From the IMG/VR virus record IMGVR_UViG_2541047827_000012: 39,749 nucleotides of DNA, one strand, 5' to 3'. Both the position numbers and the translations under genes were made by a program. The notes under the pieces are model-generated. The model was not told the origin of the DNA. It did not search any database and saw nothing but the letters and a program-made list of their open reading frames with translations. This stretch comes from a virus. Lineage: Duplodnaviria; Heunggongvirae; Uroviricota; Caudoviricetes. Positions 1-34,733 of the stretch are shown here, one piece after another (the stretch's first letter is position 1; each line of letters starts with the position of its first letter).

Positions 1-516
1 ATGAAATTTAAAAAATGTCTTCTGCCTGTGGCAACGTTAGCGTCATTCACTCTGGCAGGATGCCAGTCAAATGCTGATGATCATGCCGCCGATGTTTATC
101 AAACCGATCAACTGAATACCAAACAAGAAACTAAAACCGTTAATATTATTTCCATTCTTCCCGCAAAAGTTGCCGTAGACAACTCCCAAAATAAACGAAA
201 CGCACAAGCCTTCGGCGCGCTTATTGGTGCAGTCGCTGGCGGTGTTATTGGCCACAACGTCGGGTCTGGCAGCAATTCCGGAACGACGGCAGGTGCAGTT
301 GGCGGCGGAGCTGTTGGCGCGGCAGCGGGTTCTATGGTGAATGATAAAACCTTAGTGGAAGGTGTTTCTTTAACGTATAAGGAAGGCACCAAAGTGTATA
401 CCTCCACCCAGGTGGGTAAAGAGTGCCAGTTTACGACAGGTTTAGCCGTTGTTATTACCACGACGTATAACGAAACGCGTATTCAGCCAAATACGAAATG
501 TCCTGAAAAGAGCTAA
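1..516 (+). CDS. Lipoprotein with glycine-zipper domain (SlyB/Pcp-like), probably host
   Basis: ATG at 1; signal peptide ending in lipobox LAGC; Gly/Ala-rich GAVAGGVIGHNVGSG...GAVGGGAVGAAAG glycine-zipper stretch; stop 514-516. Confidence 0.6.
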   Translation: MKFKKCLLPVATLASFTLAGCQSNADDHAADVYQTDQLNTKQETKTVNIISILPAKVAVDNSQNKRNAQAFGALIGAVAGGVIGHNVGSGSNSGTTAGAVGGGAVGAAAGSMVNDKTLVEGVSLTYKEGTKVYTSTQVGKECQFTTGLAVVITTTYNETRIQPNTKCPEKS

Positions 517-531
517 TGATCAGGAGGAGTC

Positions 532-1071
532 ATGAAGAAAGTTTTTCTTTGCGCCATCTTAGCCTCCTTAAGCTATCCGGCTATCGCCTCATCATTGCAG
601 GATCAACTCTCTGCTGTCGCAGAAGCGGAACAGCAAGGTAAAAATGAAGAGCAAAGGCAGCATGACGAATGGATCGCGGAGCGCAACAGGGAAATCCAGC
701 AAGAGAAGCAACGTCGCGCAAACGCCCAGGCCGCCGCTAACAAAAGAGCGGCAACGGCAGCGGCAAATAAGAAAGCTCGTCAGGATAAACTGGATGCCGA
801 AGCCACTGCGGACAAAAAACGCGATCAAAGTTATGAAGATGAGCTACGCAGCTTAGAGATTCAGAAACAAAAACTGGCGCTGGCGAAAGAAGAAGCCCGC
901 GTTAAGCGCGAAAACGAATTTATCGATCAGGAACTGAAGCACAAAGCTGCGCAAACCGATGTGGTGCAATCTGAAGCTGACGCAAACAGGAATATGACTG
1001 AGGGCGGTCGCGATCTGATGAAAAGCGTGGGCAAAGCAGAAGAGAACAAATCGGACAGCTGGTTTAACTAA
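532..1071 (+). CDS. Secreted Lys/Glu/Ala/Gln-rich coiled-coil protein, function unknown, probably host
   Basis: Strong SD (caggaggag) before ATG 532; N-terminal Sec signal MKKVFLCAILASLSYPAIAS; low-complexity charged helical body. Confidence 0.5.
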   Translation: MKKVFLCAILASLSYPAIASSLQDQLSAVAEAEQQGKNEEQRQHDEWIAERNREIQQEKQRRANAQAAANKRAATAAANKKARQDKLDAEATADKKRDQSYEDELRSLEIQKQKLALAKEEARVKRENEFIDQELKHKAAQTDVVQSEADANRNMTEGGRDLMKSVGKAEENKSDSWFN

Positions 1072-6482: not shown

Positions 6483-6586
6483 GTTAAATCTCCAGATAGT
6501 CGCAGCACCCGTTGCGCCGCATATCTGGTTATTCTATTACCTGTAAAACCACATATGGATAGAAAGACTGTAAATACGAATAGATA

Positions 6587-6638: not shown

Positions 6639-6658
6639 TACTGTATAAATATACAGTT
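6639..6658. promoter_or_regulatory. LexA (SOS) box
   Basis: TACTGTATAAATATACAGTT matches the CTGT-N8-ACAG LexA consensus; 20 bp upstream of ATG 6678 and overlaps a TATAAA -10-like element. Confidence 0.7.
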
Positions 6659-6677
6659 ATTGCATGGAGAAGATAAG

Positions 6678-6935
6678 ATGCAGCAGTATCACTATCCACT
6701 GGAAGACGGATTTACCGAAAGGATTCACACGCCGGGAGGCGTCAGGTCACTGGTGGAGGGATCGCACTTGATGAAATTACTCCGGGATCTCGATAAGGAT
6801 GGATTTAATGTCGATGGCCCACTTGCCGAACTGACTGCACTGATTAACTACGTCACCAGCTCACAGATGTCTATGCGGGATCTGCAAACACATCTCGACT
6901 ATTGTGCCGAACAATTACGAAAACAAACCAGATAA
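6678..6935 (+). CDS. Antirepressor C-terminal-domain paralog (lacks Bro-N domain), 85 aa
   Basis: SD GGAG before ATG 6678; sequence ...GVRSLVEGSHLMKLLRDLDKDGFNVDGPLAELTALINYV...RDLQTHLDY aligns at roughly 40-45 percent identity to the last 85 residues of the Bro-N protein at 7249..7935. Confidence 0.6.
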   Translation: MQQYHYPLEDGFTERIHTPGGVRSLVEGSHLMKLLRDLDKDGFNVDGPLAELTALINYVTSSQMSMRDLQTHLDYCAEQLRKQTR

Positions 6936-9402: not shown

Positions 9403-9414
9403 GTGACATGTCAC
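9403..9414. repeat. 12-bp palindrome GTGACATGTCAC (copy 1 of 3)
   Basis: Exact 12-mer shared with 26927-26938 and 29192-29203; overlaps the stop codon of 9411..9707 and abuts its terminator. Confidence 0.8.
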
Positions 9415-12382: not shown

Positions 12383-14185
12383 TTAACCTCTCAAGAAACA
12401 CGCCACAGCAACATCAAACAGGCTGGAATCCTGTATTGCCTGCTCACTTTCCCTGTTCGCTTCATCCAGTACTTCACGCGCACTGCGCGATTGTGGATTA
12501 CCATCATCATCCAGCACGGTGATTATCATGTCAGGTGATTCAAGCAGCGAGTCTTCAGCTATACGCAGATCAATATCTCCTGCCGGATCTGCCATCATTT
12601 TTTGTTCTGTCTGTTGCAATATCTTACCGGGCTCAAAAGGAGCTACTTCTTCTGGCGTCCTGACCTCTGCTGTTTTATAGAATGAAACAGCCTGAGCATT
12701 AAGTTCACTTTCTGCCTGCTGTCGTCGTGCCAGTTCTGCTCGAGCTTCAAAAAACTGACCTCCAGGCTCGTGCGGCGCCAACGCGTTACGAGAAAATTCC
12801 AGGCGTTCTTGTGCCTGCCGGATTCGTTGGTCAATATCGCGAAGTCTGGCCTGTTTATCTGATCGAGCACGAGATAAAGCCTTACCGCTACCGGTTGGCT
12901 CTTCTGCAAGAATTTGTGCGCGCTGTTCAGTGAGATTTTCAATAATTCGTTGGCTATTAGCGATTTCAGACTGGTAAACCTTTCTATCGCCACGCGACAA
13001 AAGCTGCGCGGCCTGTTCTTCAAGCAACCGATTTTCTATAGCGCGCGCCGTTACTCCATCATCTACAGATGACAGAGCCTCATTAACTGCCTGAGACAGC
13101 AGACTCTTGCGCCCAGGAATTTCACTGAAAGATGCAGACTCAACAATGCTGGCAACGTCTACAGGTCTCCCCTGGCTAACATCAGACATGGCTTTTCGCA
13201 GAGCCTGAATGTGCGAATTACGCGAAAGCACGTTGATCGGAACGCCGGGAGCAATATCAATTTCAGCATGATGAGCGGCATTCGCCGCCAGTGCAGCATC
13301 AATATCAACTGGTGAAAAATTTGGTGCGCTTGTAGACTCGCCGCGAGAGTTAATAAATCTGCCGACACCACCAAACGCCACCCCAAGAACAGCATCAATA
13401 GCAATTGCCTGTCGATCCAACACATCATACTGGTTAGCCATTTCGCTATAGCCACCATCACGAAGCGTTTTTGCAGTAAGCCCACGCTGTGCCATACCGA
13501 ACGCAATATTTGTACCTGCGGCATAGGCAATATCTGGCGTTGCACGTACTGCTGTTGCTGCGGCGCGTCGCACTGAACTTTCACCCGTCCGCGCAAGCTG
13601 AGCCGCCACACCTTCCGCCAGCGCACCACCAGCACGTAACCCGAGGCTCATAGGGATCAGTGTTCCGGCACCAGCAGTAATACCCTGCACTAATCCCGCT
13701 TCCTGCGCCGTCCTGAAATCAACACCCTGTGCTGTCAACCGTTCAAACTCAGAAAAACCCTGTAGAGAAGTTACCGCCGCAGCACCTCCGACCGGACCAC
13801 CGAGCGTTGTACCGACAACAGCCTGCCCGCCCATATCGAACAACCCATAAAGGACCTGCCCGGCGGTTCCGGTTGTCGCGGCATCAGGCGTCAGCCGCTT
13901 AACCTGCTGCTCTGCTAGTTTTCTCTGCTCAGCAATGTATGAAACTGAAGTGTCATTGAGCGAGGTGTTTTCGTTAACAAGCTGAGCAATCGGGGATACG
14001 ATTTTATCCATCCCTGCCCATAGCAACTGATCTGGCTTTGCCACCAGCCCGGAGTACAAACCAGACAATGCCGCTCCTACAGCATTGTCGAAAAAACCAA
14101 CATCGCTGTTAAAGCCAACTGGATTTGATGCTGCTTCGTCAAGCTGCTGATTCTGGTTTACTGGATTAAGGCCAAAGTAACTCAT
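12383..14185 (-). CDS. Internal virion/ejection protein (600 aa)
   Basis: Gly/Ala-rich N-terminal half, coiled-coil C-terminal half; in the tail-tube/internal-core block. Confidence 0.65.
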   Translation of the reverse strand: MSYFGLNPVNQNQQLDEAASNPVGFNSDVGFFDNAVGAALSGLYSGLVAKPDQLLWAGMDKIVSPIAQLVNENTSLNDTSVSYIAEQRKLAEQQVKRLTPDAATTGTAGQVLYGLFDMGGQAVVGTTLGGPVGGAAAVTSLQGFSEFERLTAQGVDFRTAQEAGLVQGITAGAGTLIPMSLGLRAGGALAEGVAAQLARTGESSVRRAAATAVRATPDIAYAAGTNIAFGMAQRGLTAKTLRDGGYSEMANQYDVLDRQAIAIDAVLGVAFGGVGRFINSRGESTSAPNFSPVDIDAALAANAAHHAEIDIAPGVPINVLSRNSHIQALRKAMSDVSQGRPVDVASIVESASFSEIPGRKSLLSQAVNEALSSVDDGVTARAIENRLLEEQAAQLLSRGDRKVYQSEIANSQRIIENLTEQRAQILAEEPTGSGKALSRARSDKQARLRDIDQRIRQAQERLEFSRNALAPHEPGGQFFEARAELARRQQAESELNAQAVSFYKTAEVRTPEEVAPFEPGKILQQTEQKMMADPAGDIDLRIAEDSLLESPDMIITVLDDDGNPQSRSAREVLDEANRESEQAIQDSSLFDVAVACFLRG

Positions 14186-23691: not shown

Positions 23692-23984
23692 TCCTGTTCA
23701 CTGGCCTCTTTGGCCATCTTCAAATACTGTTCAGGGCAATGCGCCATAACGCGCTGAAACAGTTCCAGCGCCAGATTGCGTTGCCCCTCATTAAATGCCA
23801 TTGCCATAGCGTCCATCGGTGAGATAGCGGAAAACACACGGCCTTTCTCCAGCACCGACCAGACAACGCGACGCCCCTGTTCACTGCTCATGACAAAGCG
23901 AATGTCATCAATTTCACGCTGTGCCATGTCACGTTGCTTACGGGCGCTTTCTTCTTTCAGTTGATCATCTTCGTAATCTGTCAT
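23688..23984 (-). CDS. Hypothetical head protein (98 aa)
   Basis: Overlaps portal stop and scaffold start by 4 nt each. Confidence 0.5.
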   Translation of the reverse strand: MTDYEDDQLKEESARKQRDMAQREIDDIRFVMSSEQGRRVVWSVLEKGRVFSAISPMDAMAMAFNEGQRNLALELFQRVMAHCPEQYLKMAKEASEQE

Positions 23985-25881: not shown

Positions 25882-25971
25882 ATCAATGACTCCGTACGCA
25901 ATTAAATTATTACCAATTTAACCACATATGATTTATTTATCGTAGGTGGTTGACATTTAACGCATAAATTA

Positions 25972-26308: not shown

Positions 26309-26385
26309 GTGGCATTAGCTCAGTTGGACAGAGCAACCGCCTTCTAAGCGGTTGGTCGCAGGTTCGAATCCTGCATGCCACGCCA
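26309..26385 (+). tRNA. tRNA-Arg (anticodon TCT, reads AGA)
   Basis: Cloverleaf folded by hand: acceptor GTGGCAT/ATGCCAC, D-arm GCTC-AGTTGGACA-GAGC, anticodon stem ACCGC/GCGGT with loop CTTCTAA, T-arm GCAGG-TTCGAAT-CCTGC, discriminator G plus CCA. Confidence 0.9.
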
Positions 26386-26583: not shown

Positions 26584-26922
26584 ATGAACAACCAGCAAAT
26601 CGAAAAAGAAATCGTTGAGAAAGGCAAAACGGCACCGCGCGTTACGCCAGGCCATATCGAAAGCATTATTCTTGCGGAAACGTACTTCACTGCTGCTGAT
26701 GGGGCTATTGCAACTGGCGATGACTATCACGACAGTTTGGCTCTGCTGACATTTTGTGTATTGACTCTACAAAATGGCTTCACCGTCACCGGAGAGAGTG
26801 CCTGTGCAAGCCCTGAAAACTTTGACGCAGAAATTGGTCGGAAGATTGCCCGGCAGAATGCTGTAAACAAAATCTGGATGCTCGAAGGTTACTTGCTGAA
26901 GCAGAAGCTAAGCGAGCAATAA
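26584..26922 (+). CDS. Phage Gp49-like protein (112 aa), function unknown
   Basis: SD AAGGTGA before ATG 26584; resembles the small gp49/Sf6 gp66-like phage protein family by recollection. Confidence 0.55.
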   Translation: MNNQQIEKEIVEKGKTAPRVTPGHIESIILAETYFTAADGAIATGDDYHDSLALLTFCVLTLQNGFTVTGESACASPENFDAEIGRKIARQNAVNKIWMLEGYLLKQKLSEQ

Positions 26923-26926
26923 CACC

Positions 26927-26938
26927 GTGACATGTCAC
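26927..26938. repeat. 12-bp palindrome GTGACATGTCAC (copy 2 of 3)
   Basis: Exact 12-mer, 5 bp after the gp49-like stop and 4 bp before the terminator hairpin. Confidence 0.8.
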
Positions 26939-27012: not shown

Positions 27013-28488
27013 TTAAGCATACGGGTCATAATCTGTGATGGCCTTGCCTTGCTGGTTCTGCTGCCCAGGAATTCGCAGACGCTTCGACACAGGGAAAGCA
27101 AACGTCAGCAGTAGCGCATCGCCTTTACCAGGAGAACGCCCAAGCCGCTCCTTGATATCTTCCTTCGGTTCGATAACGATTTTACCGTCCACTCGAACTT
27201 TGTACTCTGCCGCAGACAGGTCGTCCGCTGTTTCCTGGTCATCCAGCATGCCGCCCAGCCTCAGCCATGTCTTGCATGAATTGAACATCTCCCCACGCTT
27301 GTTAAGCATCTGCGGGTCAGTAGACGCGCCACCGAACGGAACAAGTTGCCATGTACGACCCCAGCCATCACCGATTGACTTCAGACCAGTTCCGTAACCG
27401 AAGTCGATGAACACTGCGTCAGCCTGGTACTGGTCTTCAAAGTCAGCGATACGCTTCGCCATAATCAGATCGTCGGTAGTCTTGTTGCCAGTCCACAGCA
27501 CCTTACTGTGTAGCCCCTGCCGTAGGTATATCACCGCGTCATCAACGCCTGAATATGCCGGGTCAACACCGATTATCACCGGAGCATGCGCCACCTGCGC
27601 AGCGGTTACCACCCGTTTCATTGCCTCATCAGTAAGACCGGTAGGGATAAACTGCAATTCAGATGCATCAGGGAATATGCCGCGCACACGGATTTTAACG
27701 AAGTCGCTGTCTTCCCCGTAGTCATCAACCCATTTCTGCAACTGCTGTTTGTTAGTGCCTTCCACCGTCCGGCTGTCAATCTGCGCAGTTTTCCAGCGGT
27801 GTTTATATTTGCGGAAACATTCGCGGAAACGCCCGGTGTTACGTGTAGGGTTTCCGAACGCCACCCAGATAATCTCAGTGTCTTCGTCCGTAAGCGCACC
27901 CTCAGCAACTTCCCACACCAGATCCGCAATGTTCGACGCTTCATCGAATACCACGATGATGCGTTTGCGCTCGTTGTGTAGTCCGGCGAATGCCTCAGTG
28001 TTGTGCTCAGACCAGGGGATTGCGTCAGCTCGCCACCGCTTGTCGTGCCCAGGATCATTGCTGTACATCGCGGTAGCGGTACAGGTAAACCAGTCTTTCG
28101 TGATAGCAAGGTTCGACCACTTGATAATTTCCGGCCAGGTCTTCGTTCGTAGCTGGTTGTCGGTGTTGGCGGTCACCACGACCTTACAATCCTCGCAAGT
28201 GGACATGCCCCAGTTGATCAGCATTGAGATGAATGCGGATTTACCAATACCGTGACCAGAAGCGCGTGCCAGCATAAGCGGCTGATAGCGCGTCTCTGGA
28301 TTCTGCAGGTGATCACGTATCTCTCGGAACGCATCAGCCTGCCACTGACGTGGGCCGGTAGCATGTGCCAGTTCAGTCCCCTCTTCCCCCCACGGGAACG
28401 CATAGAGGGCATAGCCAAGCGGATCGTGAGTGAACCCTGCAATATCATCGATCAACTGCTCTTCAGGAGATAACGCTGTATCTGTCAC
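27013..28488 (-). CDS. Terminase large subunit
   Basis: P-loop ARASGHGIGKS and acidic nuclease-domain motifs; 491 aa; ATGA overlap with TerS stop. Confidence 0.9.
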   Translation of the reverse strand: MTDTALSPEEQLIDDIAGFTHDPLGYALYAFPWGEEGTELAHATGPRQWQADAFREIRDHLQNPETRYQPLMLARASGHGIGKSAFISMLINWGMSTCEDCKVVVTANTDNQLRTKTWPEIIKWSNLAITKDWFTCTATAMYSNDPGHDKRWRADAIPWSEHNTEAFAGLHNERKRIIVVFDEASNIADLVWEVAEGALTDEDTEIIWVAFGNPTRNTGRFRECFRKYKHRWKTAQIDSRTVEGTNKQQLQKWVDDYGEDSDFVKIRVRGIFPDASELQFIPTGLTDEAMKRVVTAAQVAHAPVIIGVDPAYSGVDDAVIYLRQGLHSKVLWTGNKTTDDLIMAKRIADFEDQYQADAVFIDFGYGTGLKSIGDGWGRTWQLVPFGGASTDPQMLNKRGEMFNSCKTWLRLGGMLDDQETADDLSAAEYKVRVDGKIVIEPKEDIKERLGRSPGKGDALLLTFAFPVSKRLRIPGQQNQQGKAITDYDPYA

Positions 28489-29081
28489 TGATTACCATCC
28501 TGACGTTCTTTGAGTCGCTTCCTGGCTGCTGCTATGCGATCAGCAATTGTCACATTCACATTAACATCCAGACGTTCTTTGAACGCGTTGACATCAACAT
28601 GCTTACCAATCAGCTCAAGGTTCTTCACCTTGTCAGGCCATTTAATTTTTTTGAGGATTGTCTCTATCGAATCCTCGTTCATGTTCATGATGGTCGATGA
28701 CAGATCAAAGCCACTAAGCGTAGTGCGCCAGATTTTCGGCCACTCACGGATTGGTTTAAGGCTCCCATCGTCGTTGAGGATGTCGATCACGTCCATCTGG
28801 TCGATCTCCACCAGGCGCATGAGAACGTAATCAGCACTGACGCGCATTCGTTTGTTGCGCTCCTCCATCAACTCGGCAATCCGTTTTTGAATGCGTTCAT
28901 CGCGCATCATGACACTGGCTTTAACTGCCGCTGTATTTGGGGAGAATCCTGCGTTAATCGCTGCCTGAGTCTGGTTTTCAGGCGTTTTGATGTATGACTG
29001 GCAATAAGCCTCCTGCATTGCTGTTAGTGGCTTAAATTGCGTTGATTTGCGTTTATAGGTTTTAGGTTCAGCAGGCATCAT
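28485..29081 (-). CDS. Terminase small subunit
   Basis: Start set at internal ATG 29081 because the track N-terminal extension runs through upstream direct repeats; typical TerS size and position. Confidence 0.65.
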   Translation of the reverse strand: MMPAEPKTYKRKSTQFKPLTAMQEAYCQSYIKTPENQTQAAINAGFSPNTAAVKASVMMRDERIQKRIAELMEERNKRMRVSADYVLMRLVEIDQMDVIDILNDDGSLKPIREWPKIWRTTLSGFDLSSTIMNMNEDSIETILKKIKWPDKVKNLELIGKHVDVNAFKERLDVNVNVTIADRIAAARKRLKERQDGNQ

Positions 29082-29088
29082 AACCACC

Positions 29089-29120
29089 GTGGTAATAGTT
29101 ACCGTTGTGGTAATAGTACC
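29089..29120. repeat. Direct repeat GTGGTAATAGT(T)ACC x2 upstream of TerS
   Basis: Two copies at 29089-29103 and 29107-29120; each contains GGTAA-N3-(T)TACC, the operator half-sites in inverted order. Confidence 0.6.
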
Positions 29121-29122
29121 AT

Positions 29123-29150
29123 GCAAAATAAAGCCGCCATAGTTGGCGGC
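29123..29150 (-). terminator. Rho-independent terminator upstream of the TerS/late operon
   Basis: GCCGCC-aactat-GGCGGC hairpin followed on the minus strand by TTTATTTTGC; 42 nt before the TerS start. Confidence 0.55.
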
Positions 29151-29191
29151 AGTATTCAAAACCCATCAAATTCATCATGCATAATCTACTC

Positions 29192-29203
29192 GTGACATGT
29201 CAC
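29192..29203. repeat. 12-bp palindrome GTGACATGTCAC (copy 3 of 3)
   Basis: Exact 12-mer overlapping the stop codon of 29200..29541, about 40 nt upstream (minus direction) of the terminator at 29123-29150. Confidence 0.8.
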
Positions 29204-29541
29204 ACTATTAATTTCGTTTCATGCCAGCCTTTAGTCACCCAGCATTGCGAGTCACCATTGCACGGGCATGAATTAACTGGAACTCTCTCGCCGCACTTAC
29301 CGCAACGTTTTCTGCTGATCGATTTTATACGCCCGCGCACGCGTGCATCATCCTGGCGGATCAGTAACGCTATATACTCACCAAATTCGTAAGGTGCACG
29401 CCCGGGGCGACGCGTGGCACAGTTACGCTCCAGCATTTCAATTTCCTGAGCATCAAGCACAATCTCCAGCTTACGCACACCAGATGCAGCTTGTCTGGCT
29501 CTCTGAGCGGCTTTGCGCTCTGCTGCTGATTTAGCCATCAA
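29200..29541 (-). CDS. Small Arg-rich protein with C-terminal Cys cluster (putative zinc-finger regulator)
   Basis: 113 aa; C-terminus CGKCGERVPVNSCPCNGDSQC (C-x2-C...C-x-C); last gene before the late-operon terminator. Confidence 0.5.
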   Translation of the reverse strand: MMAKSAAERKAAQRARQAASGVRKLEIVLDAQEIEMLERNCATRRPGRAPYEFGEYIALLIRQDDARVRGRIKSISRKRCGKCGERVPVNSCPCNGDSQCWVTKGWHETKLIV

Positions 29542-30527: not shown

Positions 30528-31181
30528 TCACTCTCCTTTGATGCGAATGCCAGCGGCGCGGATTGCAGCGATGACATCAGAAACTTTGTATGCCATTACC
30601 GTTTGGTAATCATCGTGAAAATCTGTTCGATGAAGCATGCTGCTACGTTCCGGGAGCAGTATTTCCCGCTCCTCCAGTTCTGCTATGCGCTTACTTCCAT
30701 CCGCGATTACTCCCTCGTAATATTCACGCTGCTCGTTGAGTCTTGATTTTGCTGCTTCAAGCTCAACGCGCAGCTTCCCTACCGTTAGCGCAATTTCCTC
30801 GTTCTCCTGGTCGCGGGATTTGATGTATTGCTGGTTCCTTTCCCGTTCATCCAGTAGTGCCAAAGCAACCTTTGGATTAAAGGCAGCAATAAATTCAGCG
30901 TTGTTTTTCAGAACGTGTTGCGCAATCGCCTGACTACTTAGTCGGACCTCATAACCACGTGCGCCACGGTTGATAACCTTGATTTCGTCCATAGCGCCAG
31001 ACTTCAGCCCCGCATTCTCCGCCGCCAGCGCATTAGCACGCGCCAGTTGCACTTCCAGTTGCGTTGCCAAATCGCTGATCAGCTTTGCCACACTGCGCAT
31101 ATCAACGGCACCACATTCTGCTTTCAGTTCCGAAGCCATCTCATGCCCGGCGGCAACTAACCCTTTGATATTACTTTCCAT
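30528..31181 (-). CDS. Hypothetical coiled-coil protein (217 aa)
   Basis: Long predicted coiled-coil segments; early/nin-like region. Confidence 0.5.
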   Translation of the reverse strand: MESNIKGLVAAGHEMASELKAECGAVDMRSVAKLISDLATQLEVQLARANALAAENAGLKSGAMDEIKVINRGARGYEVRLSSQAIAQHVLKNNAEFIAAFNPKVALALLDERERNQQYIKSRDQENEEIALTVGKLRVELEAAKSRLNEQREYYEGVIADGSKRIAELEEREILLPERSSMLHRTDFHDDYQTVMAYKVSDVIAAIRAAGIRIKGE

Positions 31182-31605: not shown

Positions 31606-31652
31606 TTAAAAACCACATAAGACACTAAATCAATAGAATTTAGAATATTTTG

Positions 31653-34029: not shown

Positions 34030-34614
34030 ATGAAAAGTATCCAGGACGTCCGCAGGCAAAATCTCAACGACTTGATCGACCGTGAATTCAATGGTGTTCA
34101 GACGCGGATGGCAGAAAAACTTGGAACTCAGGCAAATCTGGTAAACCGCTGGGCTCTTGGCAAGAAGGTTATCGGCGACCAGGTTGCACGAAAAATTGAA
34201 GCTGCCGCCAATAAACCCCGTAACTGGCTTGATATTGATCGCTCGCTTTCTCAGGAGGGTTTTCAGCCTGTCGGCCCGAGCGATATAGGTCAGCTGGCGG
34301 CTCACAACCTGGAACGCTGGATGAGCGAAAGCCGCGACCTTTCAACGCAGGGAAAACTACACCGCGCATCCGGCGTCGCCCAGGTGACAATCAGCCGCCT
34401 GTTAAACAATGAGGTCAGCGTTTCCATTTCCACCCTGGAGAATGTTGCATCCGCATTCGGGCGTCACGGCTATGAATTACTGATTCACCCGCACGACCCT
34501 GCGACCATCAACTATGATCGCTCGCGCTACGCATTGTTACCCGAAACCGAGAAAGCAAAGATCGAAAGTTACATTGAATTTGTCATCAACCAGAACGAAA
34601 AAAACAAACAATAA
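34030..34614 (+). CDS. Prophage repressor, double-HTH, no S24 peptidase domain (CI-like position)
   Basis: 194 aa with two HTH-like segments; no Ala-Gly cleavage site or Ser/Lys peptidase motifs seen; flanked by operator clusters; followed by a terminator. Confidence 0.65.
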   Translation: MKSIQDVRRQNLNDLIDREFNGVQTRMAEKLGTQANLVNRWALGKKVIGDQVARKIEAAANKPRNWLDIDRSLSQEGFQPVGPSDIGQLAAHNLERWMSESRDLSTQGKLHRASGVAQVTISRLLNNEVSVSISTLENVASAFGRHGYELLIHPHDPATINYDRSRYALLPETEKAKIESYIEFVINQNEKNKQ

Positions 34615-34686: not shown

Positions 34687-34733
34687 TTTTTTTAACTCAT
34701 ATCTATTGACATCAAACCAGATACGCATAATTA

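Follow-up and report, generated by a model that had tools for sequence, protein, structure and literature searches.

The region upstream of the small terminase gene terS is most likely, judging by its sequence, a junction of two modules, in which the early operon is closed by an intrinsic terminator and a packaging promoter gated by the prophage repressor follows. For epsilon15/phiV10-like phages in general, we think it probable, with some reserve, that this terminator is followed by a repressor-gated extended -10 promoter for terS-terL and that an antiterminator is not needed.

The DNA analysed (39,749 nucleotides, hereafter the window) shares its gene order with epsilon15 and phiV10, and its late genes are encoded by the minus strand. 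On sequence comparison, the region is 94-99% identical to the Uetakevirus phages phiV10, PAS61, O157 typing phages 9 and 10, TL-2011b and ZX5, and the window is judged to be an epsilon15/phiV10-like (Uetakevirus) temperate phage genome. A sequence-only reading had reported a palindrome, a terminator and two repeats on its minus strand, and all were found where they had been placed. The features considered here are the following (L numbers in the text are our handles for compared sequences).

29538..29200, minus strand: 112-aa gene, final gene of the early-right operon (PHROG 536)
29192..29203: 12-bp palindrome, copy 1, at the end of the 112-aa gene, whose TGA stop it overlaps
29151..29191, minus strand: spacer of ~42 nt, apparent remnant of a 70-aa ORF (alignment with L011)
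29124..29150, minus strand: intrinsic terminator, end of the early-right operon (fold; annotated as rho-independent in epsilon15)
29113..29121, minus strand: candidate extended -10 TGgTACTAT (PterS) for the terS-terL unit (conservation and operator register)
29120..29089, minus strand: direct repeats, followed by the Shine-Dalgarno GGTGG, terS and terL
29098..29114, minus strand: putative operator O1, ATTACCACAACGGTAAC (motif scan; the epsilon15 equivalent is annotated)
29080..29096, minus strand: putative operator O2, ATTACCACGGTGGTTAT (motif scan)
29088..29084, minus strand: Shine-Dalgarno GGTGG, within O2
28485..29078, minus strand: terS (small terminase subunit), starting MPAEPK (Terminase_2 match, E 1e-29)
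27013..28488, minus strand: terL, downstream of terS
26927..26938: palindrome copy 2, between terL (end 27013) and a convergent gene (end 26922)
9403..9414: palindrome copy 3, overlapping the stop of the 98-aa gene that closes the structural operon
34030..34614, plus strand: prophage repressor gene, SPC32H Rep homologue (PDB 5D50 match, E 4e-42)

The start of TerS bears on how this region is read. A longer ORF of 224 aa begins at a TTG at 29159, just upstream of the terminator stem, and runs through the terminator and the repeats; it is annotated as TerS in phiV10 (41..715) and PAS61 (12387..13061). However, the start is most likely the ATG at 29078 (MPAEPK...), because the upstream extension (29081..29159) contains in-frame stops in the Scandinavium prophage L095, so that it is not conserved as coding, and because TerS in the epsilon15 annotation begins at the ATG giving MPAEPK. 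This would correct the start annotated in phiV10 and PAS61.

Terminator, putative operators and a candidate promoter upstream of terS

The terminator is built from the stem GCCGCC-AACT-ATGGCGGC (29150..29133), followed by TTTATTTTG as far as 29124. It has a 7-bp stem with 6 G-C pairs, a 4-nt loop and TTTATTTT after the stem, and its RNA folds at -16.4 kcal/mol (z = -2.6). The G+C-rich hairpin and the U-run (29150..29124) are those of an intrinsic terminator, and the element is kept in epsilon15, where it is annotated as rho-independent after gp49. The stem, the U-run, the energy and the conservation in epsilon15 thus corroborate the strong terminator that had been called at 29150-29123. Rfam gave a single match, to rseX, which at 27.8 bits was below the 50-bit threshold.

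Between the palindrome and the terminator, ~25 of the 80 close relatives have a 70-aa ORF (MPKIRYDLEDM...), which is preceded by a Shine-Dalgarno sequence and ends just ahead of the terminator (10357..10566 in L011); a Pfam search with it gave no match. When aligned with L011, the window spacer retains only the first few and the last 27 bases of this ORF, ~186 nt being lost. On this alignment, the spacer (29151..29191) is a deletion scar with no conserved promoter. A promoter match across the palindrome and the spacer, GTGACA-18-CATGAT, was rejected as accidental because the spacer reads as such a scar; the match spans the 186-nt deletion junction and is absent in relatives.

The direct repeats GTGGTAATAGT are located at 29089-29099 and 29107-29117, spaced 18 bp apart, and the repeat 15-mer has 4 matches with up to 3 mismatches, against 0.64 expected. 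They had been described as carrying operator half-sites in inverted order. They do carry repressor half-sites, but there is no separate inverted-order element; read in the other register, they become two canonical tandem operators. On the minus strand, these are O1 (ATTACC-N5-GGTAAC) and O2 (ATTACC-N5-GGTTAT), whose centres are 18 bp apart and which each differ by one mismatch from the 17-bp inverted repeat ATTACC-N5-GGTAAT. By motif, the two repeats are therefore better read as tandem 17-bp prophage-repressor operators of the epsilon15 gp38 / SPC32H Rep type. O1 overlaps the -10 element described below and the predicted transcription start, and O2 spans the Shine-Dalgarno GGTGG and the first ATG, part of the O2 match being the Shine-Dalgarno itself. 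O2 is also weaker and less conserved than O1, with 2 mismatches in epsilon15 and an indel that breaks it in L095.

A scan of the whole window for ATTACC-N5(4)-GGTAAT (spacer of 5 or 4 nt, at most one mismatch) gave 10 sites, against 0.17 in shuffled sequences:

33959: operator site flanking the repressor gene
34671: operator site flanking the repressor gene
34733: operator site flanking the repressor gene and overlapped by PL
31590: operator site upstream of the DUF1064 gene
30595..30610: perfect operator-like site ATTACCGTTTGGTAAT with a 4-nt spacer, inside the 3' end of an Ead/Ea22-like gene and just upstream of an 80-aa gene
29098-29114 and 29080-29096: operator sites upstream of terS
25971: operator site upstream of the portal unit
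8008: operator site
6586: operator site upstream of the 729-aa gene

Three of these sites flank the repressor gene 34030..34614, whose product is a clear homologue of SPC32H Rep. SPC32H Rep binds DNA as a tetramer (PMC9638917), which fits paired operators 18 bp apart. Since other transcription units also have upstream operators, the repressor appears from these sites to control a dispersed set of units, beyond OL and OR.

The likeness to SPC32H extends to a LexA box placed before a small gene at the antirepressor position. This box, CTGTATATTTATACAG, is perfect; it lies at 6641..6656, beside the operator at 6586, and precedes a 91-aa plus-strand ORF (6660..6935) at the position of epsilon15 gp19 and of the SPC32H antirepressor. 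The Rep/Ant switch of SPC32H was reportedly described by Kim and Ryu in 2013 and by Kim et al. in 2016.

The closest precedent is epsilon15 (AY150271.2), in which the gp49 homologue, the terminator, an ATTACC-N5-GGTAAT site and terS follow in the same order; the two phages also agree in their operator half-sites, in the stem of the terminator and in having the palindrome at the stop of gp49. The GenBank record lists seven protein_bind "repressor" sites with the sequence ATTACC-N5-GGTAAT, at places equivalent to those of the window motif; the one at 12-27, which follows the gp49 terminator and precedes terS, is equivalent to O1. The annotation upstream of terS is said to be that of Kropinski et al. 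2007. The repressors of the two phages are 42% identical, and their half-sites are nevertheless the same. Unlike our reading of the window, the record has only one repressor site before terS, no promoter and nothing at the palindrome, and epsilon15 has 23 nt where the window has the ~42-nt ORF remnant. The control region of terS is thus nothing new in kind, an operator site and the terminator being already annotated in epsilon15.

Directly after the terminator lies TGgTACTAT (29121..29113), in which TGn immediately precedes a conserved TAnnnT hexamer, as in an extended -10 element. In the 35 sequence variants found in 80 related contigs, and also in epsilon15, PAT1, L094 and L095, the TG and the TA(C/T)TAT are unchanged, and only G, A or T stands between them. 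A free n between a fixed TG and TAYTAT is the pattern of an extended -10, not of a repressor half-site, and the leftmost half-site supposed in the sequence-only reading is this TGn. Two other promoters share its arrangement: PL (TTGACA-17-AATTAT, a 10/12 match), which overlaps the operator at 34733, and the nin-region promoter before the DUF1064 gene (TTGATT-17-TTTAAT). In both, as in the TACTAT of PterS, the -10 hexamer ends on the two bases with which the operator begins (the AT of ATTACC), and this register is the same in the window and in the epsilon15 counterparts. The conserved TGnTAYTAT and the shared register lead us to read 29121..29080 as a putative repressor-gated terS-terL promoter. 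Its -35 region is poor (TATGGC), so that the promoter call depends entirely on the TG motif. This -10 register was not found at the operators that precede the portal unit and the 729-aa gene; the late units may differ in how they work.

A second recurrent motif, CATATGTGGTT, was observed in the window at 25920..25930, 6547..6557 and 31611..31621 (minus strand) and in L087 at 2988, 24751 and 35953. In the portal and 729-aa-gene units, it follows a repressor operator by ~40-45 nt, and the nin-region promoters have it between their -35 and -10, immediately ahead of the operator; terS has no copy.

From the motifs, their statistics and conservation and the promoter/operator register, we infer where transcription starts, that the promoter is active and that the repressor binds. 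In the mechanism that we favour, transcription of the early-right operon would stop at the intrinsic terminator (29150..29124), which would insulate the terS-terL promoter from the early operon. Right after it, the -35-independent extended -10 promoter TGgTACTAT (29121..29113) would drive terS-terL. In the lysogen, repressor on O1 (at the -10 and the predicted start) and on O2 (at the ribosome-binding site) would silence the packaging genes; when the repressor is inactivated, PterS would fire unaided, and therefore no antiterminator would be needed. The palindrome upstream of the terminator would lie outside this repressor switch and belong to the preceding gene. One point against the model is that direct repressor control offers no obvious early/late delay.

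The proposal of a control region before terS is thereby supported by the terminator, the operators and the candidate promoter. It had been put as antitermination or a regulated promoter: a regulated promoter fits the candidate -10 and the operators, but antitermination would not be needed, and that part of the earlier reading is probably wrong.

The same operators could also be roadblocks, like the stoperators of mycobacteriophage L5, with partial read-through of the terminator stopped by repressor in the lysogen and no promoter at 29113..29121. P1 C1 operators and L5 gp71 stoperators are cases in which one repressor has many genome-spread sites, including sites before late genes; the L5 stoperators are asymmetric and orientation-dependent and act on elongation. 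The repressor sites of the window are likewise many, dispersed and also present before late genes, both operators come after the terminator and before the start codon, and the poor -35 region would agree with the lack of a promoter. However, the window sites are symmetric 17-mers, without orientation, that stand at unit starts and overlap -10 elements. Moreover, TGnTAYTAT is conserved with its n left free, its register equals that of PL, and the terminator is a strong one, with its 7-bp stem, 6 G-C pairs and U-run. Roadblocks of this kind seem unlikely.

The 112-aa protein and its palindrome

The ORF at 29541..29200 gives 113 aa from a TTG. Because its homologues have 112 aa, the start is placed by this comparison at the ATG at 29538; the Arg-rich protein with a Cys cluster noticed earlier is thus present, with its length corrected to 112 aa, and the Cys residues are at 79, 82, 91, 93 and 99. 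The protein matches PHROG 536, "transcriptional regulator". Searches of Pfam and NCBIfam assigned it to no family, and neither a PDB sequence search nor PADLOC gave a match. In an exhaustive search, its family formed ~209 clusters at 50% identity, nearly all of them stand-alone proteins of ~110 aa.

An AF2 model from a 70-sequence alignment, which replaced a shallow-alignment model (pLDDT 62, with meaningless Foldseek matches), predicts a basic N-terminal helix, a putative ribbon-helix-helix (RHH) core and a C-terminal cysteine knuckle. The structural neighbours of this model are RHH proteins, the best being MatP bound to matS, with a weak score; a BFVD fold search returned only a fragment of the same family. 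On this model, the protein is predicted to bind DNA.

Copy 1 of the palindrome, GTGACATGTCAC (29203..29192), is a perfect 12-bp palindrome whose second to fourth bases form the TGA stop codon of the 112-aa gene. Three exact copies occur in the window (9403, 26927 and 29192), against ~0.002 expected, by our own arithmetic, for a 12-mer in 39.7 kb. Copy 2 adjoins a bidirectional terminator, its convergent neighbour being a 112-aa gene of the N4 gp49 / Sf6 gp66 family, and its position is also occupied in epsilon15 (2142), in phiV10 (2262) and in about 50 of 80 relatives. Copy 3 is directly followed by a terminator and has the same position in epsilon15 (19517), phiV10 (19493) and PAT1 (3438). 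Both epsilon15 and PAT1 have copies at the window's three positions (gp49 stop, after terL and structural operon end), the PAT1 copy after terL reading GTGACAGGTCAC, and phiV10 has two exact copies and a degenerate one. The terminator stems beside the palindromes differ among epsilon15, phiV10, PAT1 and the window. Two of the window's three copies sit between convergent genes.

Two observations concern the surroundings of these copies. Between terL and the portal gene, the plus strand carries a tRNA-Arg(TCT) (26309..26385) and the N4 gp49 / Sf6 gp66-family gene (26584..26922), and palindrome copy 2 with its bidirectional terminator stands at the end of this pair; the pair is on the strand opposite to terL and the portal gene and looks like a moron. 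A one-mismatch palindrome, GTGCCATGTCAC, is located at 23921..23932, inside a 98-aa gene after the portal gene, and is also found in phiV10 (L088, 5306).

Scanning one genome per species gave 25 loci that code for a relative of the 112-aa protein. GTGAC-NN-GTCAC was present at the 3' end of the gene in 17 of them, where its second to fourth bases are usually the TGA stop, and elsewhere in the locus in 5 more. The two arms do not vary, unlike the two bases in the centre: GTGACTGGTCAC lies on the stop codon in N15 and phiKO2, and GTGACAGGTCAC in a Vibrio cyclitrophicus phage and a metagenomic relative (~35% identical). N15 has three copies, and so has the Pectobacterium myovirus ZF40, one of them at the gene end. 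Overlap of the palindrome with the stop codon of this gene thus extends over Enterobacterales, Vibrio and N15-type phages. In CUS-3, in which the gene is absent, no copy of the palindrome was found; this is one negative control only. No clear covariation was seen between the central dinucleotide and beta-strand residues.

The DNA downstream of the gene and palindrome is unrelated among the loci and includes LexA-box promoters, various terminators and terS. Because the palindrome stays with the gene whatever lies downstream, it belongs, on this comparison of loci, to the 112-aa gene and is not a TerS-specific switch. From the same comparison, we infer that it is the cognate DNA site of the 112-aa protein.

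Of 43 distinct contexts of the palindrome, 22 have a terminator within 80 nt, as have 33 of 400 positions taken at random (8%); the spacing is not fixed, and gene ends are anyway enriched for terminators. The distance varies from 0 to ~235 nt, with the whole 70-aa ORF in between in about 25 of 80 close relatives.

In the prophages L091 (4348..4400), L092 and L097, the -35 of a LexA-box promoter was observed within 2-7 nt after the gene-end palindrome, so that the cassette of gene and palindrome abuts an SOS-regulated gene. In N15 (L116), gene 33 and the terminator annotated ahead of the antirepressor operon (genes 32-30) have the copy at 28550..28561 between them, presumably close to the promoter of that operon.

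Two other readings of the palindrome were rejected. It is not the N15 SopB centromere, the N15 IR sites being GTGCGACCnnGGTCGCAC, and on inspection it is not an RNA hairpin, as its stem has at most 4 bp and the flanks give no extension. A literature search for the 12-mer and for phrog_536 found no match, and the ZX5 and epsilon15 packaging papers contain nothing on this region.

Late regulation and packaging: rival readings

The 112-aa protein had also been put forward as a late regulator, which would bind the palindrome and either allow Q-like read-through of the terminator into terS or activate a late promoter. Its gene is the last early gene, directly ahead of terS, and the protein is predicted from its model to bind DNA. 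The order of small gene, DNA site and terminator just before the late genes resembles the Q-qut/pR'-tR' module of lambda, and the frequent presence of an intrinsic terminator near the palindrome (22/43 contexts versus 33/400 random positions, within 80 nt) points the same way. Nor was a Q homologue found: as the sequence-only reading had noted, the early-right ORFs have no Q-family match, and none is listed in the epsilon15 and phiV10 records.

Several features nevertheless speak against it. The 112-aa protein itself had no Q-family match in Pfam or NCBIfam and is modelled as an RHH protein, and its family coexists with Q-like proteins in N15 and ZF40, where the gene is mid-operon and far from the late genes. 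Gene and palindrome remain together whether LexA-box promoters, ninB or N15 gene 47 follow. The geometry also differs from a Q-type site within a promoter: in our reading of the locus sequences, no conserved -10 follows the palindrome at a fixed distance, and the distance to the terminator is variable (0 to ~235 nt), with a whole gene in between in ~25/80 relatives. At the other two copies, between convergent genes, read-through would give antisense RNA, and a candidate promoter already stands downstream of the terminator. We consider this role quite unlikely, although a role of the protein at operon ends, in termination, insulation or bridging, is possible.

It is highly improbable that the repeats are a pac site bound by TerS. 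Their position immediately ahead of terS would suit such a site, which would also explain why the phiV10 record opens inside the palindrome and that of epsilon15 just past the terminator. However, the window has ten copies of this 17-bp motif, some of them on either side of the repressor gene. Moreover, the two records begin at a gene stop and at the end of a terminator, which looks like a choice of the annotators and not like mapped DNA ends.

Likeness to MatP and matS

The E. coli matS site is GTGACRNYGTCAC (PMC6907758), and its 5-bp arms, GTGAC and GTCAC, are identical to those of the phage palindrome (PMC6907758). The MatP-matS system is also found in the same bacterial clade as the hosts (Enterobacterales, Vibrio and Aeromonas) and has several dispersed sites per genome. 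In contrast, the phage site has 12 bp with a 2-nt spacer, and matS has 13 bp with a 3-nt spacer; no site within one mismatch of the 13-bp GTGACRNYGTCAC was found in the window. The proteins differ as well, since the phage protein is without the four-helix bundle and coiled coil of MatP and has a cysteine knuckle instead. The MatP domains PF06303 (four-helix bundle) and PF17414 (RHH/coiled coil) gave no Pfam match up to E = 5, and hhalign of the 112-aa protein with a single MatP sequence was not significant (probability 0.3). The link to MatP is a lead and does not imply family membership.

Since the palindrome has the arms of the host matS, and no structural neighbour is nearer than MatP-matS, we regard it as conceivable, if doubtful, that the 112-aa RHH/cysteine-knuckle protein and GTGAC-NN-GTCAC, with a stop codon inside the site and at least two further sites at fixed operon ends, make up an undescribed phage module that may be a counterpart of MatP/matS and not a terS transcription factor. 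If true, the module might serve to organise the phage genome or to bridge it, or to insulate transcription units, or it might disturb the MatP-dependent organisation of the host terminus and cell division. The function of the family has so far been given only as "transcriptional regulator"; a DNA site can now be predicted for it, embedded in its own stop codon, and what deserves further work is this cassette of gene and palindrome, with arms like those of matS. As for the packaging genes, in epsilon15-like phages the prophage repressor probably gates them directly, behind an insulating terminator, which would make a Q-like late switch unnecessary.
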